Source: Mytilus trossulus
Taxonomy: Eukaryota
Direction of reading: 5' to 3'
DNA length: 64,000 nucleotides
NCBI RefSeq assembly: GCF_036588685.1
Contig: NC_086375.1
Coordinates: 26,040,001-26,104,000, forward strand
The notes beneath the pieces are model-generated. The model was not told the DNA's origin, made no database searches, and saw nothing but the letters and a program-made list of their open reading frames with translations. Made by a program: the position numbers and the translations under genes. Shown here piece after piece: positions 8,501 through 54,421 of this stretch (the stretch's first letter is position 1; each line of letters starts with the position of its first letter).

Positions 8501-11500
8501 TCGATCATTTCTATTCAGAAAGAAGAATTCTAACTCGAGTCATTCATAAGTTAATTGTGCATTTGAAGAAAAGCATTTAGTTTGGTATTATTAAAGATAG
8601 GTAAGATATAAATGAATGAGACACAACCCCAACAACACAGAAAAAGTAAACGACTTATGTATACGTGTATGCATGCAAACTTGCTATAATTATGCGGTAT
8701 GGATTTGTATAATTGTTGGATGCCGTACGGTGACCTATAGTTGCTAACATCCTTTGAACTTTAATATAGTTGTCTCATTTGGAAATCATAATACATCTTC
8801 ATATTGTATATTCACATGGATCAAAATATTTATTTCAGGAAAAATGGAGGGAAACGACAGAACCAGTAGAAACTTTTCATTACATCAGTCTTCTTACCTT
8901 GGACAGTATGATGAAATGTCTGTTTGGCTACAACAGTGACTGTCAAAACGAAAGGTACGACAAAGTTAATCCGTTTCCCACCCAAGGAAAGTAAAACTCA
9001 TGTACAGTTTTGCGAATGTATGATACCGTCTTCGAAGTCCCCTTTCCTATAAATATCGCTAACATAGCTATTTATTTACAATACATCTTTGGCGTTCAAA
9101 TGTTCAAGTTTTAGCGTTAACGTTCTTGATGATTTTGTGTCTAAAGAATCCATTCGAACGCGCGAAATTAACAACGTGTTAGCACTGCTGGTGGACTGTT
9201 AATCCCCAAGGTTTCGATTACTAAAATAATTTATAACCTATTTTGTTTCTACAATTACCACAAGCTGTCCTGATCGTTAAAAACTTTTAAAATTTAAGGT
9301 TTAAGATGAAGGTAAATCCAGAAAAGGTGCTTCGAAGCACACACTTTATAATGTGTTATTTTTATTTACCACCAAATATTTCCCCGTTCAAAAGTTGCTG
9401 CATAGATTTCCCTTTATATTAGAGCCTTTTGTTTTTATCGATCAAGAAAGGCTATTAAAATTCCTGCAAAAGCAGTTTTGATCTCATCAGTTTGGTATAT
9501 ATGAATATAGAATTGAACATAAATATAATGATAGAATACCTTTATTTCTAGTACAAGACATCCATATATACAAGGAGTGTATGATGTGTCAGAGCTTATA
9601 GTAAAACGGATAACAAATCCATTTCACCACAACCCATTTATCTACAAATTTACAGAAAATGGGTAAGTAAGGAATTTTGAATACCTTTACAGTCGATTGC
9701 ATTGAGTGTGTATGTAAGGGTAAAATCTTTGGTTAGCTTGCTTGCTTACTGAACAGTGAAGTCATTATTAGGTTATGTAAACTATCCTCCTTTAATTAAG
9801 AGTAGATAAGCCGACAGATAACAAATCAATTTCATTATATGTCTGCATGACTAGTCTACCTCGAAAGGAGAATAGTATACCTTACATTATAATGTCTTCA
9901 CGGTTCAGATAACAAGCAATCTAACCTAAGATATTACCTTTTAGAGATACACGCTCAATGCAATCGGCTGTAAAAAGGCTTAGAAGAATTTCAGTTCTGA
10001 TCCCATGTACGTTATTTGTCCTGGTCGGTTAAGGACCTTTTGTACTTTCATATACATATCATCTTCTATACTTTCCCGTCTGTTTACAATGGGGAAACAT
10101 TTACCAACGTTCATGTCAACCCATCACTGCGTTAGCATCTATTGATTATGGTTTTGACGTTGTTTTGATCTTTCCATTCGTATGATAATGAACATTCAAA
10201 TAAATACATTTGTATTTCGAGCCTCTTAAAAATCACAAAAATACTAAGCTCCGAGGAAAATTCAAAACGGAAAATCCAATACATTAAACGGATGCTTAAA
10301 AACTATCATATTCCTGACTTGGTACAGGCACTATTTTCTTATCTAGAATATGGTGGATTAAACCTAGTTTTTAAGCTAGCTAAACCTGTCACTTGTATAA
10401 TATCTTTTCGTGAGTTTGACTCAAATTCGTGGAAAAAGTTTCATATGGATAAAAGATTTATGTTTTTAGTGGAAAGATGAAATGTTGACCTTTTCTTTAT
10501 TTCAGAAAGAAATTTTACAAAGCTTGTGAAGTAATTCATGAACATTCATCGAAAATAATATCTGACAGAAAAAAGCTGTTACGAACGGAGGAAAAAGGCA
10601 GTAGAAACACAGACTTCTTGGATATTCTTATAAATTCGAGGGTAAGATTCATTTACAACAACAAAAATGTAGAGTAAGGTATCATATGTTTAATTGGCTT
10701 ATATTTCAAAGTGAAATTATTTGAAGAAGTACTGTTAAAAAGCAGTGGAAATTTCGAACTAATGTGGAAAACGGAAATAATGTGTCGTATACTTGTAAAA
10801 TCTAGTTTCTAAAAAATAGAGAGCAATATGACTTTAATTGACAATATGTATACAGACATTTTGGCACCAATTAAGAGTTATCGTATAGATATTTTGTTAT
10901 CATCTGATTCAGTTCGCGATTTATTGTTACCGATTCTTAGTATTTTAAAGTGAACGTAAAAGAAGGGCTCATTGTTAAATGCGCATTCATAGAATCAAAT
11001 TAATTTTGGTGTCTGGTAGTTTTTTTGTTTCTTTATTATTTGATTTGTTTGTTATTGCTGACGTTTGCGATGCAGATTTATATCTTAAAATCTCGCACTG
11101 ATTATTTGTTACGCTAAATGGTGCATTAACGGTATCTTTGTCACTAATAAGTTCTATATGATATAAGTCAGTATAGCCCTTTAATTCAGTAGTTCTTGTT
11201 GTTTGTTGCTGTGCAACATATTTGTTTTTCGTTCATTTCTGTGTACACAAGTTAGTCCTTTAGTTTTCTCATTAAAATTGTATAAATCATTTCGGGGACC
11301 TTTTGTAGCTGACTATGCGGTATGGGCTTTGTTCATTGTTGACCTATAGTTGTAAATGTCATTGTCATTTGTTCTGTTGTGGAGAGCTGTTTCAATTGCA
11401 AATATTGAACATCTTTTTACATCATTGTCTTTTGATTTATCATTTTGATTTTAATAACTTTCCTACTTTCGGCCAAAAGTAAAAGTTTCCGGAATCCTAT

Positions 11501-14500
11501 GCTTTTCTGAATTTTCGTTTTAGCATTATATGAGGGTTTAGATGGGGTTAAATTATTAAAGAATAATGCCCTTAAAAATGAAGATTAGAGAATAACGGGC
11601 TAAAAAAATAAAGATTAGAGAAAAAAGGGGTTATTTTTTTAAAGATTAGAGATAAAAGGGGTTATTTTTTTGAAGATTAGAGAAAAAAGGGGTTATTTTT
11701 TGAAGATTAGAGAAAAAAGGGATTTGACAACAAGAGATGAATGATTGAGAGTTTATTATTATTCTGACTTTATTATAAACCTAGCAATTATTTGTTTGTA
11801 CAGGACGAGGATGGAAACGGAATGTCTGATACAGAAATACAAGATGAAGTCGATACATTTATGTTTGAGGGTCACGACTCTACCGCTAGCACTTTGTCAT
11901 GGTGTCTCTACAACCTCGCTAAACATCCAGAATACCAAGAAAGAATCAGAGAAGAAGTGAAAGAACAATGGGGAAACAAGGATGAAATTACCTGGTAAAT
12001 TGTTTTTAATAATATCTACATCACTGAACAGCTAAAATTGACGAGCCTTTTGGCTGAAACAACCTGATTAGTTTGGTTGGAAATTACTGAAGTGCGTTAT
12101 AAAGTAGCTGTTTATTTTTTGTTATTTAGATATGTCCATTCCTTTAAATAAGGACTCTGTCTTATATAGAACGACTAATATAAAAAAGAAGATGTGGTAT
12201 GATTGCCAATGAGACAACTATTCACAAAAGACCAAAATGACACAAAAATTAACAAGAATAGGTCACCGTACGGCCTTCAACAATGAGCAAAGCCCATACC
12301 GCATATAGTCAGCTATAAAAGGCCCCGATAAGACAATGTAAAACAATTCAAGCGAGAAAACTAACGGCCTCATTTATGTAAAAAAATGAACGAAAAACAA
12401 ATATGTAACACATAAACAAACGACAACCACTGAGTTACATAAATAAATGTGGCGGGGTTAAACATGTTAGCGGGATCCCAACCCTCCTCCTAACCTGGGA
12501 CAGTGGTATAACAGTACAGCATAAGAACGAACTATAAAAATCAGTTGAAAAAGGCTTAACTCATCAGATAGACAAAAAATAAAAGTGGACGTGGCCGGGT
12601 ACTTATACATCCCGACACAAAAAGACACAATGAACAGATCTGAGAGTACTCGCAGTTATCTGACAGCTAGTTCAAAGCCATTAACAACTAATAAAAAATC
12701 ATGCCTCTAAGACTTAGCAATCAATCCGTACACATCCAACATACAATGGATTTAATGCCTGCGTCAAACTGTCCCAAATTTGACTCCACATGAAAACATC
12801 ATAAAGAAAAGGTTCAAATTTGAATGTGGTTGAAAAAAACATCGGGCCATCCATGATCATTCTTACGTCACTGCATGAATGAACACAAGTTGATTTCTCA
12901 GTGCCTCAGATTCCGGCAGCAACTTCATAAGCGGTAGCCAAATATTTGGCATTTCTCATTCATAAAATTGCCGAATTACCTTGTGAAGGAACATTTTCGT
13001 GTTGAATCCGTATGCCCATTTTATATCCCTCCGTAAAACCATCGTGTATGTAGAACTTCGTATGTCATTGCCTGACCTTTTGTAGGCATCGAACTAGTTA
13101 ATTTCATTTCAATTTTACCTATAGTAGGAAAGAAAGGTTATGCCGTATCAATTCAACATGCAAATATGTATAAAGATAGATACTATATGAATTTATAACC
13201 AGTTAATTTCATTTTTTCTAATGAAGGGAAGACATCAACAAACTGGAGTATACTTTGATGTGTGTGAAAGAAAGTATGAGAATGTTTGCACCAGTACCAA
13301 ATATATCTCGGTGTACAGAGAAAGATATACTATTACCCGATGGTCGGCTGATCCCAGCAGGTATTTGTTCTAGTATTTTGTATAATTTGTATAATTTGTA
13401 TTACAGCCGATTACTTTGAGTGTGTAGATAAAGGTAATATATTTGGTTAGCTTGCTTGCTACCTGAACCGTGAATCATTATTAGGATAAGTAAACTACCC
13501 TCCTTTAAGAGAAGACTACTTCGAAAGAAGGGTAGTATACCTTACCTAATAATGGCTTCACGGTTCAGCTACCAAGCAAGCTAACCAAATATATTATCTT
13601 TAGCTATACACTCAATGCAATCGGCCGTAATAGATTCAGCTCGGTTCCTTGGCTTACCTAGTCATTTGTTGTCGCTCTTTGACTTATAAGTATATCATTA
13701 TGTATACGGGCTTCCCAAATATTGTTGCTCTTTGACTTATAGGTATATACTCATGTTTACTGGATAAAAATAAAACGCACAATTAAATGAAGATGGATAC
13801 AAATAAGCTAGCCTCACATTTACTATTATTTCATATCTTTCTTTTGACATTAGTAAATACATGACTTGCATTTTGTGTATTGCCCTAAGATTTCACATCG
13901 TTGTTTTTTTACTTTATTTTAGGGGTTCGGATGGGAGTATCTATTTATGCTCTTCAAAGAAACCCGGATGTTTGGAAAGATCCAGAGGTACAGTTGTTAT
14001 AGAATAGATTTTGTAAAATGACTTTAACTTGCTGTTTTTTGTTCTTTGCAGATATTCACATCTTAAATTCACTAACACATGACATAACTTAAATATAACT
14101 GCAAAAATTATTGTAGTTTTTTCTTTATCATTTCAGATATATGACCCTTCAAGATTCTCATCAGAAAATAAAGTTTCAGCTTTACAATTCATGGCATTTT
14201 CAATGGGTCCAAGGTAAGGATCAGTTAACATGGTCTCTCGTCTGCATTAGGTCACGTGCATTGTTGAGTCAACAATTTCCTTTTTAAAACTGAAAATATA
14301 AAAAACAATATTTAGAAAAGATTGTCGCTTGAAAATAACACCACGCTAACATACAGTACATGCATTCCATTTAACTGTTTGTGGTTTAGTTAAATTGTGA
14401 AGCAATTGATGCATATGAAATAAATCGGACCGAAATCCATTGGTATATCATTGGAATATATTTTTGATGTAGTAGACAAATGTGTTCGATTAATATTTTT

Positions 14501-15499
14501 TTTAATGTATTGTACTCTTAACATGCATTTAAAATTGACTGCTGGACTTTCAAGCAAGACTAAAATGTGTTTTTCGACGTAATCGGTATAGTTTCGGTTT
14601 GTGCTCTTTGAACTTAAGGACGCTTTACTATGGCAACAGAATACGCACGCTCGAAAATCCTTTCTGTGATTGGACAAAATGCTGTCATGGTGGGTGATTT
14701 GGTTGTGTTTGAAAAAACGTCTCGCCAATTATATTGTGATGGAAAGCAAGTGAAAAACTATGAATATTTGAACTAGATCTTACAAAGATTTATATTTTTA
14801 TTAAAATAATTGATTCTCCAATAGCTCTTTGCAACCATGACAGCTGTTTATTCGGGACAATTATATAATTTTTAATGTAAACTTTGTTGTACGAACGTAC
14901 ATGACTTTTAGAACGCACCTACGCATGTGAGATATCATCACAATATTCTTATATATTATTCCCTTAATATAACCAGACTTAGTAAAGAATTTCTTGTTGT
15001 TACATTCAGATGGAAATTTAAGTCATTGTGCTTCTGAAGGTTATCGAAATGATAGTTTTAAACATATACTCATCGTCGGATATATTTTTTAAAGATAGTT
15101 CTTGTTTTTATATATATTGCTTGGATGTTTTTGTTTATTCTTGAAAAAACAAAGTATAATACACACGACAGCAACATCATAACAAAACAAAAACCCAAAT
15201 AAAAACAAAACATTTAATCGGAATTTTAGATAAACATTGAACTCTAAATTGTCATTTTTCGTTCTTTTGGGATTTCATCCTATTGAAGTTCACTCTAGGT
15301 CCACTTTTATCAACTTTTACTGATTTATTTTAGAAACTGTATTGGAATGCAGTTTGCGTTAACCCAGATAAAAGTAATTATTCCAATGATAGTCCGTAAT
15401 TTCCACTTGGATTTGGATCCTGAGCGACCAGCAGAACCTGAGAGTATGTTGATATTAAGGAGCAAGAATGGATTGTATCTTAAAGCGACACCAATATAA
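5549..15499 (+). CDS. Cytochrome P450, CYP4 clan (CYP4F/4A-like), 12 coding exons, 492 aa
   Basis: GT-AG exons: 5549-5713, 6471-6615, 7165-7209, 7786-7913, 8839-8954, 9552-9662, 10506-10641, 11804-11994, 13227-13360, 13923-13987, 14137-14213, 15334-15499 (1479 nt, open frame). Motifs: N-terminal TM anchor, [12 protein letters not shown] hinge, [14 protein letters not shown]-helix, [14 protein letters not shown]-helix, KESMR (ExxR), DPSRF, FSMGPRNCIG heme-Cys. AATAAA signals follow near 15640-15695. Confidence 0.95.
9687..9973. mobile_element. Fold-back (palindromic) MITE, TTACAG...CTGTAA family
   Basis: Long inverted arms (ttacagtcgattgcattgagtgtgta...tacacgctcaatgcaatcggctgtaa). Relatives at 13401-13630, 27093-27466 and a partial copy at about 19538-19690. 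Confidence 0.8.
11580..11722. repeat. Minisatellite, about 30-bp unit (aagattagagaaaaaaggggttattttttt), about 5 copies
   Basis: Directly visible tandem copies in the CYP4 intron just upstream of exon 8. Confidence 0.85.
12180..12760. mobile_element. Abundant interspersed non-autonomous repeat (aagaagatgtggtatgattgccaatgagacaac family)
   Basis: A long inverted copy lies at about 58860-59415. Partial copies lie near 8020, 11180-11400, 21680, 38130-38310 and 59630. Confidence 0.7.
13401..13630. mobile_element. Fold-back MITE (same family as 9687-9973)
   Basis: Palindromic arms ttacagccgatt...aatcggccgtaa. Confidence 0.8.
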
Positions 15500-22659: not shown

Positions 22660-24813
22660 CTAGTATGACGACCATTGTGTTAGTATAGAGATCGCTTGCG
22701 AAGGGAGTGATCTAATGCTGTCAATGTCTATGACTTTGTTTGTTTTAAGACAATAGAGACCATAAATGGCACTTGAGAAAAGTATAGATCTGGATATCAA
22801 CCAAAACCATCCGTCATAAAGCCCTTTTGTGGTTCCTTCCCCTGCTCTTCTAGTTTGTAATGGATACCACGTCTTTTCGTCAACCTGTTCAATTGCTCGA
22901 CGAGCTCCATCCCATTTTCCAGGTCCGTCTAATCTCCATTGAGGCGGTGCAGCAGGCCCAAAAAATAGCTTGGACCAGAACAGAGGGGCAGTGAAGAAAT
23001 ATTTCGTAAGATTGGGTTTGCATCCAATTAACCCAGCTATTTTGTCGACGTATGTAACTGCGTGAATCTGTAAACAGTACTTTGGAGACTCCGGAAAATG
23101 CCTTTTCATAAATTCGTGCTTTTTAGTAGCCATGGATTTCATGACTGACGCAGGCGGAAGTATGCAATTTCCAGAAAACACTCGCGCAGCCCATCTTGTC
23201 TGCATCTCTAAAATTGGCGGTAATGCTCCAAATGGCTGAACGAGACCAATGATTGCCAAGGTTGGCCTACTCAGATCTACTGGGAAAACCAATTCATGAA
23301 GATAAGGAAAATGGTTCTCTATTCTTACAACGGAGTCCTTCAGAAACGGGAAGCTAAATTTAAACCCTGTTGCTAAGATGATAACGTCTAAATTGTCTGC
23401 TGTTGTTCCATCTTCAAAAGTAACACTATTCGCTGCGAATTCTTTCACGTTAGGTTTTACAGTAATCGTTCCATACAGTATACGGGTTGGCAGGTCATCG
23501 CTGATTGTGACAACACTAAGACCAAATTTACCATTTGGTGCCAAGCTGTACTTTGTATGGTCAAATCGACTATTCAGCCTTTTAAAAGCAAACGGTTTCA
23601 TTAACCAAAACGGTACTGTTAACCCATAGCGTGTCATCGCTTTATGGTCAAAGGGGACACCTTGGTCTGTTGTTCTCTGTATCACATAGGTACCAGTTCG
23701 TGTGCTCATATAAACCTGTAAAATAGTAATTGATTTTTTATTATCAGATGCTGCTTCTACAGAAAGGTAAATTGTGAAAATGTCTCTTAGAGCTTTGGAG
23801 AGGTGCTGAAGAAATCATACTAAACATAAATTCCGATTTGTACATGCGGTTTATTGTAATTTTGTATGGCGAAGACTATCAAAATGCATAAAAAAACGTG
23901 AAGACAGCACGAGGCAATATTTAAATAAATAGTGTGATTGGATTACTGTCATTTTGATGTTTTATTCTCTCCTTTTCAACATAAGCAATATAAAATGTAT
24001 TATTATCTCCATTTACATTTTAATATTTCTTATTTGTAATGTCCAATGAATTATTTTTCGTTTAATAGCTAAAATTTAGATTGTCTCTCAGTTGAATTGA
24101 TTTAACTATTTCATCCTGTTAGTAAAAACTTGGAAGAAAAAAGAACAATATGTTTGTCCCTTGAATGCAACTTTTTAACTTACATGTTCAGCATGACGAC
24201 TCAATTCTGAAGCAACATCTGAAGCAGAGTTCCCAATCCCAATGACAAGAACCCTCTTTCCCTCAAAACTTCGAAAATCTTTGTAGTCATGGGTGTGTAA
24301 AACACGCCCTGTAAAGTTTGCAAGTCCTTTAAAAGTTGGTATGAACGGTTCGTGAAGATGTCCATTACAAACCATTACACAGTCAAATACGTCTTTGTTT
24401 GTAGAATTAGTGGCGAGATTTTTGTATGTTACCACCCATCTTCCGCTTTCTTCAAAGTCTTCTGCTTGTTCTACGCGCAAAATCATGTGTCTAAATCTGA
24501 TAAAATTTCTAAGCTTAAAATGTTCAGCATAAAGTTGTAAGTATCGTTTGAAGTGTCTGTGTGCCATGAAGTTTGGAAATTCTTTTGGAATTGGAAAATC
24601 GCTATAACATGTCATTTCTTTGCTGGTGTTAATGCTACACGAGTTGTAAATACTGGGATCGCCTTCCTTTGATTCATCCTTGTAATTCCAAAGCCCGCCA
24701 ACTTCATCGTCTTTTTCAAAACATACTGGTTCCATGCCTTCATCCAAGGAATTCTTGATACCAGCAAGACCTGCTACACCGGCACCAATCACGCATACCT
24801 TCTTTTTTGACAT
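22660..24813 (-). CDS. Flavin-containing monooxygenase (class B, FMO5-like), copy 1, 2 coding exons, 561 aa
   Basis: Exons 24813-24184 (cag|ATG...GAACAT|gtaagt) and 23715-22660 (cag|GTT...TAG). Motifs: GAGVAG (FAD), GGLW, FTGRVLHTHDY (FxGxxxHxxxY fingerprint), GIGNSA (NADPH), ILATGF, WRLDGPGKWDGAR, C-terminal hydrophobic anchor. Confidence 0.95.
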
Positions 24814-25319
24814 CTGAAAAAAATTTATGTTAACTTTAGGGAAAACATCAGTCAAAAATGCATTTGTCCTGGATATGCATGTACTATTTGCAACCGGACG
24901 TTTAAACAACCACCCTGCAAGTGATAAATAAAAAAAACATATAAGCTGATCGAGTGTCATGTTTTGGACGACATTTTTTAAAGTGTATTTTCCAACACTC
25001 AAGTTTGATTAATTTTAAACTTATTATCTCATTAAGACAGACAAATAGGGAACCCATCAGAGTTCCAAAGCAAACATTATCTGATGCAAAACCTATATCA
25101 AAAAGTAAAATCACAAAAATACTGAACTCAGAGGAAAATACAACCGGTAAGTCCATAATCACATGGCAAAATCAAATTACAAAACACATCAAAAACGAAT
25201 GGTCATATTCCTGACCTGGTACAGGCATTTTTCAATGCAGAAAATGGTGGATTAGCGCCAAACCTCTCAGTCACTTTGTTGACCGTCTTATCAACTTGTT
25301 TTGCAATCTATAACATTTT

Positions 25320-25640
25320 AGCATGTTTCAGAAGTTTGAACATCAACCCAACAATGTTAGATCTGTAAATTTGCTTTCGCAAATTTTTGGTTCGCAAATT
25401 TTTGGTTCTTCCCTCGCCGGGATTCGAACCCATGCTACTGTGATATCGTGACACCAAATCGCCTGCACTGCAGCATATATATACAACTCGTCTAAACATC
25501 AACTCAACAATGTTAGATCTGTAAATTTGCTTTCGCAAATTTTTGGTTCTTCCCTCGCCGGGATTCGAACCCATGCTACTGTGATATCGTGACACCAAAT
25601 CGCCTGCACTGCAGCCGTCCCGCTTGACCACACGACCAGT
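25320..25640 (-). mobile_element. tRNA-derived SINE head, partly duplicated in tandem
   Basis: Minus strand shows an A-box (TGGTCGTGTGG, ending near 25638) and a B-box (GGTTCGAATCCC, about 25560-25572). The B-box segment is repeated at about 25418-25430. Confidence 0.6.
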
Positions 25641-25850
25641 CTATAGTAAAGGATCCTACAAATTAATGTAAGATACAGTCACAGAAAATAATTATATTCA
25701 TAAGTACGTCTGAGTCAGTGACAACCCTACAACAGATGTATCCATCGGATCGCCATCAATATATATCCGATATGTCGAAATCCGGATATGGTGTACTAAA
25801 GAAATATTGACACCGAATGTTTGTGGCACAACATCCTGTCCACAAGTTAA

Positions 25851-25884
<34 letters not shown>

Positions 25885-27092
25885 CTGTGACGTATTAAAT
25901 TTATATTAGGATCCATTTTGTTACATCTTGTGATCAATTTTATTTGGCAATCGCCAATGGCAGTCAGCAGGGTTAAAGAACATCAGTTGTTCGACCTGTT
26001 AGTCAAATGCGTTTTGTTTAAATATACTTTTTCACTCTTTTGGTCTTTTGGAAAATGTTGTTTGTGCTGTTTTTAGACCCTTCTACAACGAAATTTGTTT
26101 GACATGCACACGTATAAAAACTGCGGTTTTTATCCAACGCAGTCATAGGTTTGAACGTAGTTTTCAATTTAGACTCGTATATATATATATATATATATAT
26201 AGATTACTAATAAATCCAACATTTCCGGTATGAATAGTTTTAATTCACTAGTACTTTCATTATATATATATAATATTTATTAAGTTTATGTTTCAGAAAA
26301 TTAAAAACTTGCCTGGATTTTTATGTGCATTTTTTCCAATCTGCAGAAGGAAGAAAAAACCCAAAAACATACGGTCCACTCAGATACACAGTTTAAATCA
26401 CCCATGTATTAAAATTTAAAATGGCAATGGGGAATTTGTCAAAGAGACAACAACCCGACCATAGAAAGGCTAACAACAGAAGGTCATCAACAGGTCTTCA
26501 ATGCAACGAGAAATTCCCGCGACCGAGGCGTCCTTCAGCTGGCCCCTTATCAAATATGTATACTCGTTCAGTGATAATGAATGCCATACTAAACTCCAAA
26601 TTGTACACACAAAAAATAAAATTAAAATTAAACAAGTCTAACAAAGGCTAGAGGCTTCTGACTTGGGACAGGCGCAAAAATGATTATGAGATCCCAGCTC
26701 TCCCCCTATACCTCTAGCCAATGTAGAAAAGTAAACGCATAGTAATACGCACATTAACATTCAGTTAAAGAGAATTCCGAGTCTGATGTCAGAAGATGTA
26801 ACAAAAGAAAATAAACAAAATGACAATAATAAATAAATAACAGACTAATAGCAGTTAACTGACATGCCAGCTCCAGACTTTAATAAAACTGATTGAAATA
26901 TTATGTCTTCATCATATGCATATCAGGCACAATTGTCCATTTAAATCAATACTACCCTCAACATTTATTATATGAGGGGAGCTTCTCAAACCTCTTTAAT
27001 AACTTAGTTTATTTATGCACCTACTGCACGAATGGTTCTGGAACATTTTTTAAAAATTTAACTATCTAGTTCCTGACATGTCTTATAACCTT

Positions 27093-27466
27093 TTACAGTA
27101 AAAAAAAAGGCTCTTAAGTATGAAAGTAAATGTAATATCTTTGGTGATCTTGCTTGCTAGCTGAACCTTGAAGTAATTCTTAAGTTAAGTAAATCGTGAA
27201 ATCATTATAAGGCTGGGTATACTAGTACCCTCCTTTCGAAGTAGTATATAGTATTCCTATAAAGACAGATACATTGGTCATTTGTCGTTAAGAATATAGA
27301 CTAATCCGACAAATGACCAATGTATCTGTCTTCATAGGAATACTAGACTACTTCAAAAGGAGGGTACTAGTATACCCAGCCTTATAATGATTTCACGGTT
27401 CAGGTAGCAAGCAAGCTAATCAAATATAATTACATTTACCTACACACTCAAAGCATTCTGCTGTAA
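27093..27466. mobile_element. Fold-back MITE (TTACAG family) with a near-perfect central hairpin
   Basis: Arms gacagatacattggtcatttgtcg / cgacaaatgaccaatgtatctgtc. Termini ttacag...ctgtaa. Confidence 0.8.
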
Positions 27467-27670
27467 TGTGTACAGGTTTGTCTGTACTCAGAAAAAATGG
27501 TGTTGTAAATCCGGCCATTGTTTATATAAGATGAACCTTAACTCTTTTAAGGTAGCTTTGTTTACATTTGAATATGCTTCACATATGATCACATTTTGTT
27601 TTGTTTTAAAATTAAGTCTTTTGAAATGAATATATTAAAAAACGTTGATAAACAAACAAAAACTGTAAAT

Positions 27671-27730
27671 ACTTACGTTCGTCCACTTATACAACCTGAT
27701 AAAGTTATCTTCAGCTTTAATGCCTTTATA
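27671..27730 (-). promoter_or_regulatory. Putative TATA box, short non-coding exon 1 and splice donor of FMO copy 1
   Basis: The ATG at 24813 follows a splice acceptor, so an upstream exon is expected. Minus strand shows TATAAA at 27730-27725 and GTAAGT at 27676-27671. Confidence 0.45.
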
Positions 27731-29603
27731 AAGGTAAAGGTCAGGATTGAAGAAGATAAATAATCAACACGCATAACTTACACAACTGGACGGGTGGCGG
27801 TATTAACTAGTATTTAACAATTCTGTGTTATGAAAAGATCTTTTTTCTCATTTTAACCAATACAACTACGTTACAACATTAACTAGTATAAGTGCTGATG
27901 CATCATTTGCGCATTTCCCAAATAATGTCCATGAAGTTATGTTCTAAGCACAGGGGCGAATTCAGCCATTTTATAAAGGTGGTTCCCTTGTGGACTGCCA
28001 CAATATATATACGTCCCCATTCACTGAAATGCATTGATCTCGTAAAAAAAGGAGTTATAATTTCCAGAATCCCCAATCCCTTGGATCTGCCACTGAAGCT
28101 TAATTGAGAATCTTGTAAAACGCTCAAGAACTGAAATAAACGGAAGAAGGACATTTTTCAATTACGTATCATCAACCCTTGCAGTTAGTGTTTTGCCCTA
28201 GAAACGATGAAAGATCATATCTTTATTAATTTTTCGTGATCTTGTACTTTTCTTAATCATTAAAATGCTTAGGTTTAAACACCCGTAGGTAAAGTTACCC
28301 TTAACTGTATTTCCTATTCATTTAGATGTCATTGAAAGGTGGTTACAAACACCTTGCCTAAAGTAAATTTGTTTCATTTAATTTTTATTAAATTTTGACC
28401 AAAACAAACTTAAATATAAATTTCCAGTTTACAAAACATTGAATTTCTTATCCCAGGCATAGATTACCTTAGCCGTATTTGGTACAACTTTTTGGAATTT
28501 TGAGCGTCACTGTCTTATGTAGACGAAACGCGCGTCTGGCGTATTAAATTCCATCCTGGTAACTATTTACGTTGACCCTTTGAAAAAATTATTTGAAAAA
28601 CTTTGAAACACACTCTTTCTTTGATAAAAATCATTGAATATTATTATATCATTATATTATTATATCAGTTTATAAACAAACATTTATTTTGATCATTTAG
28701 AAGCCTGATTTTTACGGAGCTCTCCAATCGTTAATTTTACGGACACCATCACGAATATCTGTTTCGCAGACGACGACGGAAAGGTCGCAACCAAATCCCG
28801 TCCTCTTTTCCCCGAATGTGACCTACTAAATTTAACTTATAATCGGTTTGCACCTCCATCAGCAACACGACGGGAACCACAGGTGGAACAGGACATGTTA
28901 CCCGTCCGGAGCAACTAAGTCACCCTGGTTTTTAGTCGGGTTCGTGTTTCTCAAATTTAACTTTTCTTGTTGTGTTTTGTGTACTGTTGTTTGTCTGTAG
29001 GTCTTTTCCTTTTTTGCCATGAAGTTTTCAGTTTATTTACCTTAAAAATTGTTTTTGGCTTTGATAAATACTATTCCAGAAAAAAAACGTTTTCTGAGCA
29101 TTGACAAATAGGTTCTAATTACTGAACACGTCATTAACCTTACTATTGACGAATTGAAACACTCCTACTCACGTGGACGGTACTTCCAGCTTATATTTAT
29201 TGACATCATGGATAGCCATGTGTTCATGGATATTTGGATTTGATTGGTCTATAAATGTTTGATGCTTTAGTTAGTACGGTAATTTGAATGTATCACAGTT
29301 ACATACGATTTTTTTACTTTAATAATCATATTTTCATCAATTATTTCCCGTGTGCCTTTGTCCCATTTCTGTAATGATGTACAGTACTACAATGTATATA
29401 TGCTAGTTGTTTACAGCTTCGGGAATGCAGCATTTCAACCCCAATAGAGTTTCAGTAGCTTAATTTTGTTCATTGAAACATTTATTACCATGCACTTATC
29501 CAATTTGATATACTAGTAAACAAAATCAAAATTCCAATGACGGTTCTTTTGCAACAATGAACATATTGTGCAGTATGGTCATTTAAAAACATAACTGCTC
29601 TTA

Positions 29604-29862
29604 GGGACGACATCAAAAGTTCAATGTAGGATAAAAAAAACTTAATTCAGATAGTTTTTTTACTGACCCCCCTACCCCCCCCCCCCCCCCTCATAACTTA
29701 ATTTGGGGGAAAATGATTGACCCACATGGATATATGTAAAATCGATGTAGGATAAACAAAGCTTGCAGCAAGTTTAACCCCCCCCCCCCCCCCCCTCCCC
29801 CCCACCCCCAAACTATTTGAATTAAGTTTTTGTATCCTTCATTGATCTTTTGATGTCGTCCC
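29604..29862. mobile_element. PIF/Harbinger-like MITE with two poly-C tracts
   Basis: tta|gggacgacatcaaaag...cttttgatgtcgtccc|tta (TTA TSD, TIR of at least 16 bp). Confidence 0.75.
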
Positions 29863-30000
29863 TTACTGACGTCAATGTAATCAATTTTGTTAAAACTTTT
29901 CTTGAAAACGCCATCATTTCTCATTATGTTTAGAACATAACTGATAAACAAAAACATATAGTTAAAAAATAAGATTTCCCTATGATGTCATAGGTATTGC

Positions 30001-30094
30001 CACAGGCACTTGTCTCAAAAAATTTTTTCTATATACCTTAATATGTGTTATATTAAGGTATATAGGAATTTTTTTTTTGAGACAAGTGCCTGTG
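30001..30094. mobile_element. 94-bp hairpin MITE with an 8-bp TSD (hAT- or P-like)
   Basis: ggtattgc|cacaggcacttgtctc...gagacaagtgcctgtg|ggtattgc. Confidence 0.85.
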
Positions 30095-30455
30095 GGTATT
30101 GCATGTCGTCTACTGTTTCAAAATTTTCTAGTTTACTGACTTTTTCTGGCTTTGCCCTTCGAAATATTTATACGCAGTTTCAGTAAACCTCGAATGATTT
30201 TTTTGTGAATTGATTGTTGATGTAATCAACTATTAGTTAATGTAATAACATCAACAGAAAGCACAACTTGTTATACCGTATACATAGAAACTCTTTTTTT
30301 TAAATGAAAACAAAATCTAATATCAAGCTGAATAATTTATAATATACATTAATTTAGAGTTAAATACAATAATGAAGAAACATCAACCCAAAAAGTATTG
30401 ATAACAATACAGGGGTATCGTTCCAGTCATAACCAGTTGAAGGGGTCAATTTATT

Positions 30456-32804
30456 TTAAACTTTAAAAGAATGCACACTATATCCGTTAGAGAACATGAA
30501 ACGAAGAATAAAAAGTACGAGTATAAAGATTATAAATCTTTTCAACCATTTGATCCATCCGTCATATAATCCTTCTAGTTCTCCGGCTCCAGATTGCCTT
30601 GTTTTCATTGGATAGTATGTATTCTCCTGAACATTCTCGATTGCCTTTCGCGCTCCGTCCCATTTTCCTGGACCATCCAGTCTCCATTGTGGTGGTGTAG
30701 CAGGTCCGAAGTACAATTTATACCAAAGCTTTGGATCTGTGAAAAAGTGCTTTAGAAGGTTTGGTTTGCAACCTATTTTCGATGAGATAGTATCTAAGTA
30801 GGCAATGAAATATACCTGAAGACTATACCGTGGTGAATCGACATACTTCTTCTTCAAAAACTGTCGCCTTTCCTCAACAACTCTACGACGTTCAGATGGG
30901 CTTGGTAAACTGCATTTACCCGAGAACACCATACTCGCCCAGCGCGCTTGAATTTCTAGAATTGGCGCGAGACTGCCAAATGGTTGAACAAGACCAACTA
31001 CTGCTAAAGTGCTCGGCTCCATGTCTACAGGAAATACAAGTTCATATAAGTACGAAAAATGGTTATCTACTTCAATGACGGAATTATCTAAGAAAGGAAA
31101 GCTGTATGTAAATCCGGTTGCCAAGACAACGACATCGATATTTTCAACCATAGAACCATCATCGAAAATGACTCCGTTCTCTGTGAACTTCTCCACGTTC
31201 GACTTGATGCTGATAGCGCCATACAATATACGGTTTGGTAAATCATCGCTAACCGTGACAACTCCGCCATCAAACCGGAAGTTCGGAGCCAGTCCATAGT
31301 TTGAATGTTTGTATTTGTAGTTGATTTTGTTGTAATGGATAGGTCTCATGATATCCCATGGTAAACTCTGGCTATATCTGTTTAATGCTATGTGATCAAA
31401 CGGAACGCCGTACTCGCCAGCTCTTTGCTGAATGTAAGAACCCCTTCTGGTGCTGACATAAACCTTGAAAAAAACCCAATATAAATCAATTATATAGTTA
31501 TAAACAAACAGAAAAATATACATTTTTTTTCATTTCATTTTAAAATTGATAAGATTTCAATTATTTTCACATTGCTTTTTAAAAACATGTTATGCGTCAT
31601 GAAATGAATTGTTCGTTCTTTTTACTTTTTGTGGTGTGCTGAATATTGAATATAACGTGTGAAATTTACCTCTAAATTGAACACCTTTTTTTTTAGCAGC
31701 ATAAGATATGCTGTGCCAAGAAAATATTTGTGTTGGGGGTACTTGTTAGCCTCTTTGTACCAATTAAAGTTAAACGTAAAAGAGCAAAGATTCGTAGAGG
31801 TGTAGAGACTACTTATTCTGTTTGTTTTTTTCAAAGAAACCCTGCAATATGTCTGGCTTTTAAAGTAGATAAGCTTTATTTACCAAATTTGTTATTCTAT
31901 ATTTTGTCTAAATTTCTGTTCGTTTTTACTCGCACTCGCCGAGGAACAATATTCGAGCGCGAAGCCATGTGTTCCACATCACTTTCTTTATATGTATTTC
32001 CTGTTAAAACCATTTCCTACACCCTACCTATCCTGATGCCCGACACTACGTTCCAGGTATTAGCTAAAAGCCATACTCTCTCTTATATTGGTATATGGGT
32101 AACATACTGAATATTGCGATCGGGAACCAGTCTACACCCTACCATAAGATATTCTACCATTAAAGAAACTATAATAAATGAAAACTAACGTGTTCAGCAT
32201 GTCTACTTAGTTCACATGCAACGTCTGCTCCAGAATTCCCAATACCAACAACCAGTATGCGTTTGTCTTCGTATCCATGGAAAGTCTTGTAGTCACGTGT
32301 ATGCATCACTTTACCTTTGAACCTGTTCAAGCCGGGAAATGTTGGTTTGTTTGGTTCGTGCAAATGTCCATTGCATACCATTACAAAGTCAAATAGTTCT
32401 GTAGAGTTCTTTCCGGATTTCGTGTTCTGTGTTCGGACTTTCCATCTGTTGTCGTCACTTTTCTCGATTTTTTCTACTAATGTTTGAAATCTTATACAGC
32501 TCATCAGATCAAAATGATCAGCATAGAGGTTTAAATACTTCTTAAAATGTTTATGATCCATAAAATTTGGGAATTCTTTAGGGATAGGAAAATCGCTATA
32601 ACATGAAATTTCTTTGCTGGTGTTGATACTGCAAGAATTGTATAAACTTGTGTCGCCCTCTTTCGTTGTTGTATGATAGTTCCATAGACCTCCAATGTCA
32701 GTATCTTTCTCGTAGCAGACGACATCAAAACCTTCCTCCAAACTATTTTTTATTGACGTAAGGCCTGCTACCCCTGCGCCTACTACACATACCCGTTTTG
32801 TCAT
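30456..32804 (-). CDS. Flavin-containing monooxygenase (class B, FMO5-like), copy 2, 2 coding exons, 540 aa
   Basis: Exons 32804-32190 (cag|ATG...GAACAC|gttagt) and 31463-30456 (aag|GTT...TAA). Motifs: GAGVAG, FKGKVMHTRDY, GIGNSG, VLATGF, C-terminal TM segment FIIFILVLFILRFMF. Intron position matches copy 1. Confidence 0.95.
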
Positions 32805-38880: not shown

Positions 38881-40521
38881 GGTGGTCATGAAGTATTGAT
38901 TATAGGTACTGACGTGGTTTATTATCATAATCACATTAACGTGCTCTTTTCATTTGTTCTTATACATATTTAATTGGAATAAATGTTTGGCCTTGGCTAG
39001 GTATTTATACAGCCATTGTGTTATTACTAAGGTCATTTTTTTTCGTATTCTTGGCTTTCATGCTTATGGACTTTTTCAATAGAGTGTCAATATACTATTT
39101 TTAAATATGTATTTGTTTTATTGTGTTTAAGATCATAACACATAGTTGACTGCTGTACCACACATTTGGTTTGCTTTGTTTTCACGTTGCCTTGTCAATA
39201 TAATTGGGTACATATATCAAATGCAAAATGTCATACAATTGAGAGGTTAAGCTAGCTTTAAAATCAGGTTTAGTCTACAATTTTCGATAAAAAGAAATGC
39301 CTGTAACAAGTCAGGAATATGGCAGTTGTTTTCAAGTCGTTTGATGTGTTTGAGTTTTTGATTTTTTGCCATTTTGATAAATGACTTTCTGTTTTGAAGT
39401 TTCCTTTAAGTTCGTTTTTAAAAAAAAAAAATTACTTTATATTAATTTTTGTTTTTATGACATCAAATTTTTTTTTTTGGGGGGGGATGTTATGTGTACT
39501 GTAAAAAAATGTCTAGAAATTGGCAGCATAGATTCTCACAAAAAATAATATTTGTATCATCAGGTATGGAACGCCATAGCTGTCTTATGTGTCTTTTTTA
39601 TTGCTTTTCTATTATAAGATGGTGCTTTTCTATTATAAGATGGTGGTTTTCTATTATAAGATGGTGCTTTTCTATTATAAGATGGTGGTTTTCTATTATA
39701 AGATGGTGGTTTTCTATTATAAGATGGTGGTTTTCTATTATAAGATGATGGTTTTCTATTATAAGATGGTGCTTTTCTATTATAAGATGGTGGTTTTCTA
39801 TTATAAGATGGTAGTTTTCTATTATAAGGTGCTTTTTTATTATAAGGTGCTTTTCTATTATAAGGTGCTTTTCTATTATAAGGTGCTTTTTTATTATAAG
39901 GTGCTTTTCTATTATAAGGTGCTTTTCTATTATAAGGTGCTTTATAAGGTGCTTTTCTATTATAAGGAGCTTTTCTATTATAAGGTGCTTTTCTATTATA
40001 AGGTGCTTTTTTATTATGTGATGGTGTTTCCCGTGATTAACCGGGAGTGTGGGGAAGCACTAATGACAGGACGATTGCCCGGATAGTGACAGGACGGTTG
40101 ACCGGACGAGATATAAATAGTCATAACTTTTTTGTTATTCGGTAGATTGGTTTAATATTTGTAGACCTTAAAGATATTAAAATATATTTTATGAAAATAA
40201 AAGAAAATAAGTGAAAACAAATATTTTTGAGCAAATAAAGTTAACCGGACGGTATTCACACTCTTCGTTATACGCTGTACATATATTCAACTTGTTCAAT
40301 TCAATTTAAAATATTTTATTGTTCATATCAAATGTACATTTAAACAAAGGGATTGGACAAAAGGCAGTGCCTATACAAATCCTTTCCCATACAAGACGAA
40401 TTGAATAACATGCATGCTAGTATATAATTTTCTGGTAAGTTAATAGATCATACGTTGTTGCAGTGAGTCAGGGAGGCAGTTCCTCCACTTCTTGAAGTAT
40501 TTTTTGTGTATACATTATATA

Positions 40522-42240: not shown

Positions 42241-44233
42241 ACAAGTGTTAATATCTTTGACAATATTTGTCCAAGTAATTCAGGAATCTGTGAGATTTAA
42301 AAAACAAATTATACGAAAATATAGATTTATAGTAAAAAAAAATATTTTTCTGCTAAAAAAGTTGACCGGACTAAATTCACATTCGCCGATGTGTTTAACA
42401 GAGACATATATGATACATGAAGAGATTCGCACATCTATAATTGTATTTTAGGTCTTTGGCTTTAAATATATTAACAGGATTTTCTTTCTTCACAGAAGGT
42501 TGACTGTCAGTAAGAAGTATCTGATGAACTTGACTGCCATTATCAGCATACCTCAATCTTAGTAGATTTCGGTGTTTATACAACCTTTCTGTTTTGACTG
42601 AGGTATTTTTAACTTGGCTGGTGTTTTCAACTTGGCTGATGTTTTGTTGTTTTTGGAGACTGAGGTTCCAAGGGAAAGGACATTCAAATAATATGCCTCC
42701 TAAGAGTCCGAGAAGCTCTCGAGATGCACGATTTTGCGTATTTTTTCAAGGCTTCTGGGGGTCTTGAGCGACCGCCAGACCCCTCACCGAATGATGAATA
42801 TATTTTGCCTCACTTTTAAATTTAAATATAGTGACAGACTAGTAGTTAGTGACAGTGCAATATTATACAAGAGTAACTTTGTGTTCGATGCCCGTCCTTT
42901 ATTTTCTATTGTAAAGTGTCTGAACACGACTGAATGCAAGTTTACTCCTTCGAAGTTAAAGGTCATATTGGAATACATTGTTGTTGTTTTTTTCAAATGA
43001 TTTGATACCGGCAGATTGGTGGTCTCACTTTAATTTAATCCATGTCAGCTATCTAGTTTTATCTTTAAAAAAAAAAGAGAGCCAGTTTTGTATTCTTTAA
43101 TAAAAAGTTCAATTCACTGTAATCTTTGTTTGGATTCTGATTGCCATCTGATTATATAAGTTAATTCAATTAAATGTATTTGATGTCTCAGGTGTGAAAA
43201 CTTAAATGACATGATTATTTGCTTGATTGGTGATTACGACAGGTGTCAAAATTAGATAGTAATCTAATTAAATACATGTAATAAATATTTTATATATCAG
43301 GTCTTCTAGTGTGCTGGTGAGCTTACTCAAGTCAATATTTTAAGCTCAAAAGTTTTTATTAATTTATTTTATTTTATTTATTTATTAATGAAATGCGCAT
43401 TTATACCCCTGGGGGTTAATAAAAAAGCACCTTATAATAGAAAAGCACCTTATAATAGAAAACCACCTTATAATAGAAAACCACCTTATAATAAAAAAGC
43501 ACCTTATAATAGAAAAGCACCTTATAATAGAAAAGCACCTTATAATAGAAAAGCACCTTATAATAGAAAAGCACCTTATAATAAAAAAGCACCTTATAAT
43601 AGAAAAGCACCTTATAATAGAAAACCACCTTATAATAGAAAACCACCATCTTATAATAGAAAACCACCATCTTATAATAGAAAAGCACCATCTTATAATA
43701 GAAAACCATCATCTTATAATAGAAAACCACATCTTATAATAGAAAAGCACCTTCTTATAATAGAAAAGCACCATCTTATAATAGAAAAGCACCATCTTAT
43801 AATAGAAAAGCACCATCTTATAATAGAAAAGCACCATCTTATAATAGAAAAACACCATCTTATAATAGAAAAGCATCATCTTATAATAGAAAAGCATCAT
43901 CTTATAATAGAAAAGCAATAAAAAAGACACATAAGACAGCTATGGCGTTCCATAATCAGGCGTTTATTTGTAACTGTGTAACATGCACACAAGAGGACAT
44001 ACAAAAACACATATACCGACTGCTTCAGTAAACCCTAAATTTCTTATTTACGAAAAATCGGGTCCAAGGATGTAAATGTTACAGCCTTAATAAAAATTAT
44101 CAAGCATGAAAAATATACTGACGTCACGGGAGAATGAGATAGAACGGTATAAAAAGGGCGCCAAATAACATTATATAATTTTCCAAAAATTTATTCTATA
44201 TCTAAATGCAACATCATATACAAACACAAATAT

Positions 44234-45427
44234 TCATTGCCTTTGTAGAGTATAGTACTGGAGTATCCCACTCTTATCGTCAGCAATGCCAATACAATGT
44301 TTAACAACGAAGTTTTCCATCAAAGAAAAGTTAGCAGACGATAGCAAGACCGGTGTATGTCCAAATATTACCATGTATCCACCTTTCTTAACTGTCGGCA
44401 AAAGAGCACCAATGAGTTGTTCTGCTTCGGTGGACGTAACAACTTCAGAATTGAGAAAACGAATAAAGACAACATCAGCTGACGCTGGAGATATTTTTGG
44501 TTCCATGGCGTTCCCACAGTGTACCTCATCGACCCGAGTTTTAGAAAATCCTACCATTTGCTTGCTGAGATCTTGTCCAATGGTATAACTCTCGGGAAAT
44601 GCCTTTTTCAAAGTTGACAGGAAGACGCCAGTTGAGCAGGCCGGATCAAACAGTACCAACTTTTGAGTGCTCAGAGTTTTTAGAAATTTAATGGTGTACG
44701 CTCTTATCCTTTCTTCCCCACATCCAAGCATTACGTCAAACGCATCATCAACAACCCAACCTTCGGAAGGTGAGCATAATTCCTTCCTTGTCGATTCCCG
44801 CAGAAGAGAAAATGGAAAAACAATCTCTACGTTTTCTATTTTATGGTCAGTGATGTCTTTCATTATTTTGAGCTTTTCACCGTTCTTCAACGGATGATAA
44901 AATACATTGACGAATGTTTCAGTTATCCTTTGGTCGGAGAATACGCCTAATATCATACCCGCGGAAATAAAGCTGCAGTGGATCTCTGGAATCCTATTTT
45001 GTATCCACAAGTCCGAGAGGATCTTTCTTCCCACTAGTCTATATTTCGATGGACCTATATTAAATGTTAAGAAGAATACACTTTGCGGAAGGGCCCAGTG
45101 CTTCTCAGTAAGTCGCTCCAACTTTCTATTATTGACTTCTGTCCAGTTAACATCGTCAACAATTTTGCAAGAGTTTGTAATGTGGAAGGTAACATAGCGA
45201 TCTAGTTCACTTTTAAGAAGCTGCAAGGTACTCCTGTCTGACGGGTGTTCTCCCGACTGGGATAAAGATTCTTCTAATAATGCCTGTGCATTTTTCAACT
45301 GTCCTTCCGCAAGAAGTCGCCGAATTTGTAAAAATTTCTCTCGGAGATTATCATCGTACATTCCTTTGAAGATCCCATCGTAGCTTTTAATAGCATCTGT
45401 CAAAACGGGTGCCTTCTTGTCGGCCAT
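44234..45427 (-). CDS. Intronless class I SAM-dependent transferase, probable 3-amino-3-carboxypropyl transferase (Nat/isonocardicin synthase-like, ACT), 397 aa
   Basis: Single ORF from ATG 45427 (MADKKAP) to TGA 44234. C-terminal Rossmann fold with LFDPACSTG (motif I), GQDLS (motif II), ADVVFIRFLN and KKGGYMVIFGHTPVL. Minus-strand AATAAA at 44195-44190. The family assignment is from recalled motif resemblance, not a database search. Confidence 0.8.
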   Translation of the reverse strand: MADKKAPVLTDAIKSYDGIFKGMYDDNLREKFLQIRRLLAEGQLKNAQALLEESLSQSGEHPSDRSTLQLLKSELDRYVTFHITNSCKIVDDVNWTEVNNRKLERLTEKHWALPQSVFFLTFNIGPSKYRLVGRKILSDLWIQNRIPEIHCSFISAGMILGVFSDQRITETFVNVFYHPLKNGEKLKIMKDITDHKIENVEIVFPFSLLRESTRKELCSPSEGWVVDDAFDVMLGCGEERIRAYTIKFLKTLSTQKLVLFDPACSTGVFLSTLKKAFPESYTIGQDLSKQMVGFSKTRVDEVHCGNAMEPKISPASADVVFIRFLNSEVVTSTEAEQLIGALLPTVKKGGYMVIFGHTPVLLSSANFSLMENFVVKHCIGIADDKSGILQYYTLQRQ

Positions 45428-45972: not shown

Positions 45973-47130
45973 CTATAATATTCCATCATCTTTCTAATAG
46001 GCTTTGTGATTTGGAGCATCGTATTTGGCTATTTTGCTATAATATTCCATCATCTTTCTAATAGGCTTTGTGATTTGGAGCATCGTATTTGGCTATTTTG
46101 CTATAATATTCCATCATCATTCTAATAGGCTTTGTGATTTGGAGCATCTTATTTGGCTATTTTGCTATAATATTCCATCATCATTCTAATAGGCTTTGTG
46201 ATTTGGAGCATCGTATTTGGCTATTTTGCTATAATATTCCATCATCATTCTAATAGGCTTTGTGATTTGGAGCATCGTATTTGGCTATTTTGCTATAATA
46301 TTCCATCATCTTTCTAATAGGCTTTGTGATTTGGAGCATCGTATTTGGCTATTTTGCTATAATATTCCATCATCTTTCTATTAGGCTTTGTGATTTGGAG
46401 CATCGTATTTGGCTATTTTGCTATAATATTCCATCATCTTTCTATTAGGCTTTGTGATTTGGAGCATCGTATTTGGCTATTTTGCTATAATATTCCATCA
46501 TCTTTCTAATAGGCTTTGTGATTTGGAGCATCTTATTTGGCTATTTTGCTATAATATTCCATCATCTTTCTAATAGGCTTTGTGATTTGGAGCATCGTAT
46601 TTGGCTATTTTGCTATAATATTCCATCATCTTTCTAATAGGCTTTGTGATTTGGAGCATCGTATTTGGCTATTTTGCTATAATATTCCATCATCATTCTA
46701 ATAGGCTTTGTGATTTGGAGCATCGTATTTGGCTATTTTGCTATAATATTCCATCATCTTTCTAATAGGCTTTGTGATTTGGAGCATCGTATTTGGCTAT
46801 TTTGCTATAATATTCCATCATCATTCTAATAGGCTTTGTGATTTGGAGCATCGTATTTGGCTATTTTGCTATAATATTCCATCATCTTTCTAATAGGCTT
46901 TGTGATTTGGAGCATCGTATTTGGCTATTTTGCTATAATATTCCATCATCATTCTAATAGGCTTTGTGATTTGGAGCATCGTATTTGGCTATTTTGCTAT
47001 AATATTCCATCATCATTCTAATAGGCTTTGTGATTTGGAGCATCGTATTTGGCTATTTTGCAGCATCGTATTTGGCTAATTTGGAGCATTGTATTTGGCT
47101 ATTTTGCAGCATTGTATTTGGCTATTTTGC
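45973..47130. repeat. Minisatellite: 17 near-identical copies of a 64-bp unit plus a degenerate tail of about 21-bp subrepeats
   Basis: Unit ctataatattccatcatc(t/a)ttctaataggctttgtgatttggagcatcgtatttggctattttg. 45973-47060 equals 17 x 64. Confidence 0.95.
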
Positions 47131-53800: not shown

Positions 53801-54389
53801 AAAATTATCCATAAAACGGCTAAAGAGAATATAACAGAGGCGCAGTTATAAAAGTAAAATATATAAAGATAATAATAAAAGTAAATTATTTATAAAAAAG
53901 TTATAGTTGAAGATTTCATAATGAAAATAAATAAACAATGAAGATTCGGTCCGGTAAGAAAAAGACACCGGAACCCTAACGAATGGGCCCTTAATATAAG
54001 GTACGGGGCGTATCAAATGATACGTACAAAATTTGTGAAACTGCAGTCACATAACATGATGATACCATTAGTTTTTGCTAATAGGTTGAAACCGTACAAA
54101 GATCCACGAGATTACAGACCACAGGCTGATAATCAATCGGATCCGCGTATTGATAAAAAGATTAACACACAAAGATGAATCAGACACAAAAGTCTATTCA
54201 AAATTTGCGTCAGATCAATCAGTACAGCAATCACAGACACGTGATACGAGTATATATAAACAAAGAGATAATATTAATTTTGATAAGAAATCAGACAATA
54301 CACCTGACGGTACTAAGAATAGTAATAACGATAAATCATCTAAGAACATTTGGTTTGAAGAAACTTATTTTTTTTAAATAGAATTTATA

Positions 54390-54421
<32 letters not shown>

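Follow-up and report, generated by a model that had tools for sequence, protein, structure and literature searches.

What would two tandem flavin-containing monooxygenases (FMOs) contribute to a biosynthetic gene cluster in a mussel? The question is raised by a 64,000-nucleotide stretch of the Mytilus trossulus genome (NC_086375.1, forward-strand positions 26,040,001 to 26,104,000; the window), in which two FMO genes, FMO-A and FMO-B, lie close to a gene for an aminocarboxypropyl transferase (ACT). We consider it about an even chance that one FMO, probably the conserved copy B, makes an aldoxime and that another enzyme finishes the nitrile. What the present analysis adds is the placement of both genes, by tree and residue comparison, in a mollusc FMO clade apart from the generic mollusc FMOs. 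The coding parts of the two genes, in window coordinates, are as follows.

22660–23715, minus strand: FMO-A coding exon 2, 351 amino acids plus stop, faster-evolving, with a weaker, longer C-terminal anchor (PF00743, E = 1.5e-85)
23716–24183, minus strand: the single coding intron of FMO-A, 468 bp, phase 0, H|V (GT-AG; skipped in 4/4 runs)
24184–24813, minus strand: FMO-A coding exon 1, 210 codons, with the FAD motif, NTSK, the FMO fingerprint and the NADPH motif (PF00743, E = 4.6e-81)
30456–31463, minus strand: FMO-B coding exon 2, 335 amino acids plus stop, clade-consensus residues kept, strong C-terminal membrane helix (PF00743, E = 3.7e-90)
31464–32189, minus strand: the single coding intron of FMO-B, 726 bp, phase 0, H|V (GT-AG; skipped in 4/4 runs)
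32190–32804, minus strand: FMO-B coding exon 1, 205 codons (PF00743, E = 9.9e-78)

FMO-A (join(24813-24184, 23715-22660), 561 amino acids) and FMO-B (join(32804-32190, 31463-30456), 540 amino acids) are spaced 5.6 kb apart on the same strand, and in each the sole stop codon is terminal. All four exons match PF00743, and both proteins display the features of class B clade I FMOs: the FAD-binding GxGxxG, the FxGxxxHxxxYK fingerprint, the NADPH-binding GxGxxG/A and the catalytic Asn61. Both introns lie between His and Val at an identical aligned site and are skipped by assembled contigs, with joints on the splice sites, in all four runs (four studies; one run is on record as RNA and three are guessed to be RNA, and contigs, not raw reads, were used). 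FMO-A and FMO-B are class B FMO genes, both intact and both spliced, and the initial annotation of this DNA, which had described two intact FMOs with a single phase-0 H|V intron each and an ATG right after an acceptor, agrees with the gene models and the contigs. Each ATG directly follows a pyrimidine tract and an acceptor-like AG. Among the contigs listed, those reaching the ATG lose their match there and carry 28–50 unaligned 5′ letters (FMO-A in two of four runs, FMO-B in one of four), as an upstream exon would give. This exon may not be wholly non-coding, because the M. galloprovincialis isoform P0001 starts two residues earlier.

The fold was checked on the AlphaFold model of P0001 (96% identical to FMO-A; predicted local distance difference test score 95), which displays a paired Rossmann fold, an NADPH-domain insert and a C-terminal membrane helix and has 6sek as its best Foldseek match (E = 7e-68). 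With mammalian FMO1-5 (AncFMO structures 6sek, 6se3, 6sem and 7al4) the mussel FMOs share the fold (TM-score 0.91–0.97 depending on the target), 40–45% sequence identity, the same motifs and the same intron site; they differ in the residues at 150, 222, 281–285, 375, 378, 426 and 431, in having far fewer coding introns and in lying in a biosynthetic cluster. The next structural match after the mammalian FMOs is 8z12 (DiatB, 31% identity), possibly a related nitrile-pathway FMO, on which no relevant paper was found in the literature searched.

FMO-A exon 2 first matches about 45 proteins at 49–95% identity, all of them from molluscs where a species is named; vertebrate FMO5-like proteins come next. 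In the tree, a branch with 100% support separates 20 rows, FMO-A and FMO-B included, from 23 further rows, of which 17 are generic mollusc FMOs; a careful 23-row tree supported the cluster clade against four outgroups at 100/100, and a 128-row tree took 105 of the 148 new representatives, picked by length. The two groups also differ at individual residues, numbered here as in tAncFMO1-5 and counted for the cluster clade against the 17 generic mollusc FMOs. Site 58 is Cys in 15/15 clade members versus Thr in 17/17 generic FMOs, site 150 is Leu in 14/14 versus His in 15/17, and site 222 is Gln in 33/33 versus Asn in 16/17. His281, present in 15/17 generic FMOs, occurs in 0/44 clade members; site 285 is Ser or Thr in 46/46 versus Asn in 17/17, and Phe375 is found in 45/47 clade members versus 0/17. 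The clade further has Leu378 and mostly Tyr426 and is without H281-P282 and D431, whereas the generic set keeps P282, H426 and D431. Neither FMO-A nor FMO-B belongs to the generic mollusc FMO5-like clade as characterized by grouping and by H150, H281-P282, N285, H426 and D431. FMO-A departs from the clade consensus at 431–432 and around 280.

Mammalian FMO structures are reported to have a cavity that His150 closes and Leu150 widens, with E281 pointing at the flavin (PMC7948450), and L375 is described as a gatekeeper (PMC10682829). Since the mammalian enzymes have sites 150, 281 and 375 in the active site or at its gate, the pocket of the cluster clade is changed relative to generic FMOs. Baeyer-Villiger activity of tetrapod FMOs is reported to need I60, H275 and H426 together (PMC9950137); by this rule, drawn from tetrapod enzymes, FMO-A and FMO-B lack the FMO5-type triad, with I60 present, Gly or Phe at 275, and Tyr at 426 in both. 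As a separate observation, two long-branch clade members, P0243 (Aplysia) and P0401 (Saccostrea echinata), share His431 with FMO-A though they are placed apart from it, by convergence or as a hidden older subgroup.

FMO-A and FMO-B are 57% identical overall, with 130 of 205 positions identical in exon 1 and 176 of 335 in exon 2, and the best 19-residue hydropathy of the C-terminal anchor is 1.27 in FMO-A and 2.08 in FMO-B. Because synonymous sites are saturated (proportion of synonymous differences, pS, 0.86; nonsynonymous distance, dN, 0.35) and the DNA similarity of the two loci is confined to exons, with none left in non-coding DNA, the duplication is old; both copies look maintained. That had been the initial annotation's view, and its observation of divergence in the second exon and the anchor likewise stands. 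The coding single-nucleotide polymorphisms (SNPs) listed are synonymous in 6 of 8 cases in FMO-A (6/2) and 13 of 16 in FMO-B (13/3), which are rough counts from 24 coding SNPs among 40 of 221 SNP rows. Both genes fall inside a pteriomorph group (98/95), the order within which the tree does not resolve. Relatives are 73–83% identical to FMO-A and 76–80% to FMO-B, so the A/B pair predates those lineages. The second copies of Argopecten and Saccostrea echinata each group with sequences of their own lineage (scallop 100/100, oyster 100/99), and Potamilus 024262, which has a long branch, falls outside the pteriomorphs. Scallop and oyster thus appear to have acquired their second copies separately, and second copies elsewhere would mostly be independent duplicates. 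Unique changes are more numerous in FMO-A than in FMO-B against 6 of 7 non-independent outgroups, against four of five in exon 2 and none of five in exon 1. By these comparisons FMO-B keeps the clade consensus and FMO-A is the derived copy.

The setting of the two genes gives these residues a context. The intact P450 that flanks FMO-A is labeled CYP4-like from its sequence motifs. The neighboring genes are as follows.

5549–15499, plus strand: flanking cytochrome P450, intact, 12 exons, 492 amino acids, CYP4-like, tail-to-tail with FMO-A; possible member of the cluster
44234–45427, minus strand: ACT, intronless, 397 amino acids, isonocardicin-synthase-like (match 8zhu, E = 2.5e-39)
49074–58259, plus strand: cluster cytochrome P450 adjoining ACT, recognized from four coding pieces, with no start found, in agreement with the "p450" described in PMC11869996

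The Mytilus bur-ox (bursatellin/oxazinin) cluster is reported to consist of a nonribosomal peptide synthetase (NRPS), ACT, a P450 and two Fmos and to keep its gene order throughout the genus (Venugopalan and Schmidt 2025, PMC11869996). The window, from a Mytilus-type genome, likewise combines two FMOs with an ACT gene 11 kb upstream of FMO-B and a nearby P450, and the part of that paper compared shows no difference between its fmos and the present pair; the best match of FMO-A is an M. galloprovincialis protein, 96% identical. Judged from this gene content, the window is very probably the published bur-ox locus. The NRPS FmtATR was not seen among window open reading frames of at least 90 amino acids, and no search aimed at an NRPS was made. 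The same paper shows that M. californianus ACT makes tyrosinol O-homoserine ethers, assigns the β-hydroxyl of the products to the P450, and predicts that the two Fmos install the nitrile, adding that the exact roles need biochemistry. The cluster, its pathway context and the predicted nitrile role of the Fmos are therefore already in print. Among the cluster genes named in its main text, the CYP4-like P450 is absent, and the parts of PMC12833800 and PMC11350588 drawn on here hold nothing on bur-ox FMOs.

The bur-ox pathway is reported across bivalves and gastropods, and synteny of its genes in molluscs is reported as well (PMC11869996). We read linkage indirectly, from clade FMO and ACT entries on longest contigs of equal size; since the homologue lists comprise the best 120 clusters at 90% identity, absences from them mean little. 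The two entries share their longest-contig size in five of the seven named species with both listed, namely Argopecten, Pinctada, Mizuhopecten (676 kb), Potamilus (421 kb) and Ruditapes (165 kb). The linkage in Argopecten and Pinctada is weak, as whole chromosomes are involved. Chance proximity is nevertheless unlikely because three distant bivalves show linkage on scaffolds of 165–676 kb. In Potamilus, the consecutive locus tags 024261–024263 comprise ACT, a conserved FMO and, between the two, a very divergent FMO (P0242, CHS0354_024262) that is without most of the clade residues. The initial annotation had held that orthologues unlinked to the transferase in other species would speak against its reading, and by this indirect test they are linked in most species. 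It had also asked of an FMO phylogeny whether the clade is restricted to transferase-bearing molluscs: the clade is indeed separate, with all named members from molluscs, and ACT shares its contig in the five species above, though not in the other two. Apart from this, a second, more distant ACT-like group (P0176–P0190 and P0202, 37–44% identity) comprises bivalves, gastropods and one protein named from the rotifer Rotaria socialis.

These elements can be combined into a route in which ACT leaves a free α-amino acid on the phenol as a homoserine ether, the putative FMO substrate, and the bur-ox end product bears a nitrile that is shorter by one carbon. A nitrile end product is consistent with the abstract of PMC11869996. 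On the pattern of the known route, in which two N-hydroxylations and the loss of water and CO2 give an aldoxime that is then dehydrated, the flavin hydroperoxide would N-hydroxylate the α-amine twice in one active site, water and CO2 would then be lost to give the aldoxime, and a separate dehydratase, probably a P450, would turn the aldoxime into the cyanoethyl nitrile. Rather than supplying an obligatory half-step, copy A would have arisen as a later duplicate and been adapted to a related substrate or tissue. We infer every catalytic step for FMO-A and FMO-B.

One FMO is favored for the aldoxime because three enzymes give aldoximes singly. SCO7468, a single FMO, is reported to accept both the amino acid and the N-hydroxy intermediate, with decarboxylation presumed to be non-enzymatic (PMC3617294), and fern FOS1 makes an aldoxime as one enzyme, from which N-hydroxy-phenylalanine can escape (PMC7486406). 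Both resemble the proposed mussel enzyme as single class B FMOs that take an amino acid through two N-hydroxylations to an aldoxime, and SCO7468 is paired with a transferase gene; they differ as bacterial and plant enzymes of other clades acting on aromatic amino acids. The millipede ChuaMOxS, a clade I animal FMO, is described as yielding the aldoxime alone, with CYP4GL4 and CYP30008A2 dehydrating the oxime (PMC12671775). It resembles the proposed mussel enzyme as a class B FMO of clade I from an animal, with a membrane helix at the C-terminus and recruitment to amino acid-to-aldoxime chemistry, a likeness of function, taken from its description, and not demonstrated orthology, and it differs in acting on free Phe, in having been shown active in E. 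coli cells and in being encoded by one gene. Because a millipede CYP4-clan enzyme dehydrates aldoximes, the CYP4-like P450 is by analogy an additional dehydratase candidate.

Several points weigh against assigning the aldoxime step to one FMO, copy B. The residue changes mark divergence, not which substrate is taken, and no amino-acid-binding residue was identified. It is conservation, and nothing further, that would single out B over A; with Argopecten as outgroup there is no rate difference between the two, and approximately unbiased tests rejected none of the pairings A+B (p 0.42), A+Potamilus 024262 (0.15) and A+Aplysia (0.20), so that A may have an older pairing with Potamilus 024262 or Aplysia. 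Potamilus also has two FMOs beside ACT, which fits a need for two activities. The FMO and ACT contigs differ in length in Haliotis asinina and Dreissena (2/7), the Dreissena ACT listed being a more distant paralogue. The cluster oxidases are described as "plausibly involved in beta-oxidation and/or" nitrile formation (PMC11869996), and no assay of the bur-ox Fmos was found in the literature searched, which covered few subscription journals.

It is possible, though unlikely, that the two copies serve two pathway reactions, one giving the aldoxime and the other a separate step, for example completion of the nitrile or an oxidation within the oxazinin branch. The Potamilus trio of consecutive locus tags would suit such a division, as would two contigs that each carry a divergent clade FMO pair (P0028/P0030 and P0032/P0040) and the departure of FMO-A from the consensus at 431–432 and around 280, together with its faster exon 2. 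However, the divergent copies are not demonstrably orthologous. In scallop and oyster the second copy groups with its own lineage, and in Argopecten it lies apart from ACT, on a different contig. Ruditapes, moreover, has one clade FMO among the matches listed, yet oxazinin-1 is reported from it (PMC11869996). A wider proposal, which we regard as doubtful, is that a dedicated, intron-stripped mollusc FMO clade takes the α-amino acid to the nitrile within flavoenzymes, was repeatedly duplicated in mussels, oysters, scallops and clams, and has a fast second copy that takes a separate step or sets which compounds are made.

We find it improbable that oxime or nitrile formation falls to the cluster P450, acting in the manner of CYP79, with the FMOs performing some other tailoring oxidation. 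Aliphatic C-H hydroxylation is not ordinary FMO chemistry, which counts against this division of labor. The β-hydroxyl needs an oxidase too, and it is the P450 to which PMC11869996 assigns it; that paper leaves the exact roles open, and plants and moths are reported to rely as a rule on P450s to make oximes from amino acids (PMC12671775), both of which speak for such a role.

Still less probable is a relay in which one copy performs the first N-hydroxylation and the other the second hydroxylation and decarboxylation. In its favor, FMO-A and FMO-B are both old; they are transcribed and subject to purifying selection, and the escape of N-hydroxy-phenylalanine from FOS1 makes it chemically possible (PMC7486406). 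Against it, SCO7468 handles amino acid and N-hydroxy intermediate alike, its decarboxylation presumably needing no enzyme (PMC3617294), FOS1 (PMC7486406) and ChuaMOxS (PMC12671775) each give the oxime alone, and the A/B split lies inside the pteriomorph group, whereas the pathway extends across bivalves and gastropods (PMC11869996). The initial annotation had proposed sub-functionalized oxime- and nitrile-forming steps; the nitrile role accords with the published prediction, but the split of N-hydroxylation and decarboxylation between the copies is poorly supported in view of the single-enzyme precedents and of second copies elsewhere, most of which are independent duplicates.

That the genes are generic detoxifying FMOs near the cluster by accident is very improbable: public names such as "FMO5-like" or "dimethylaniline monooxygenase", the fold of mammalian FMOs and the absence of linkage in 2/7 species would allow it, but generic mollusc FMOs form another clade with ancestral residues, and the scaffold linkage of 165–676 kb in three distant bivalves makes chance unlikely. 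The preference of the initial annotation for a pathway role over generic detoxification is thus favored by the bur-ox gene match, the separate clade, the changed pocket residues and the ACT linkage.

The step that forms the nitrile is the missing assignment in the bur-ox pathway, and farmed mussels and clams contain the products of this pathway. An animal FMO acting on a homoserine ether to give an oxime or nitrile would join the millipede enzyme as the second case in animals, and together with ACT would be a possible tool for placing nitriles on phenols, as proposed in PMC11869996. The results on clade, residues, intron and duplication make the choice of assays more precise and leave the kind of system unchanged. 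The shortlist that follows from this work is FMO-B first with FMO-A compared, sites 150, 281–285, 375 and 431–432, and both neighboring P450s as candidate dehydratases.

Vertebrate FMOs have many more coding introns than the one found here, which falls at Q209|V210 in ancestral numbering. On the assumption that human FMO3 and the ancestral FMO are numbered equally, the mussel intron shares its site with intron 5 of human FMO3, which is reported to begin after c.627, that is, after codon 209 (PMC4190592). Of the 45 top exon 2 matches, 12 were full length and 33 aligned only from the start of exon 2 onward, a count biased by the query, which was exon 2 of FMO-A; unrelated residues run up to the Val in four of them, and several form unbroken frames within contigs of 0.9–5.3 Mb. 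This pattern suggests that the two-exon layout is clade-wide, and the simplest reading would be that the other introns were lost on the clade stem. Horizontal transfer as the cause of intron poverty was rejected, since the proteins group with animal FMOs and share the vertebrate intron site. Intron poverty is uninformative on function and catalysis.

The window also contains several repeats. Between FMO-B and ACT there are two arrays of one 21-bp unit in opposite orientation (39602–40030 and 43417–43917), and upstream of ACT lies a 64-bp array of 17 copies (45973–47061). Tandem copies of at least 1.1 kb with 99.5% identity occupy positions 1–1096 and 1293–2388. Within an intron of the cluster P450, a direct duplication of 1287 bp with 99.8% identity (50342–51628 and 55790–57075) represents either a recent duplication or an assembly artefact.

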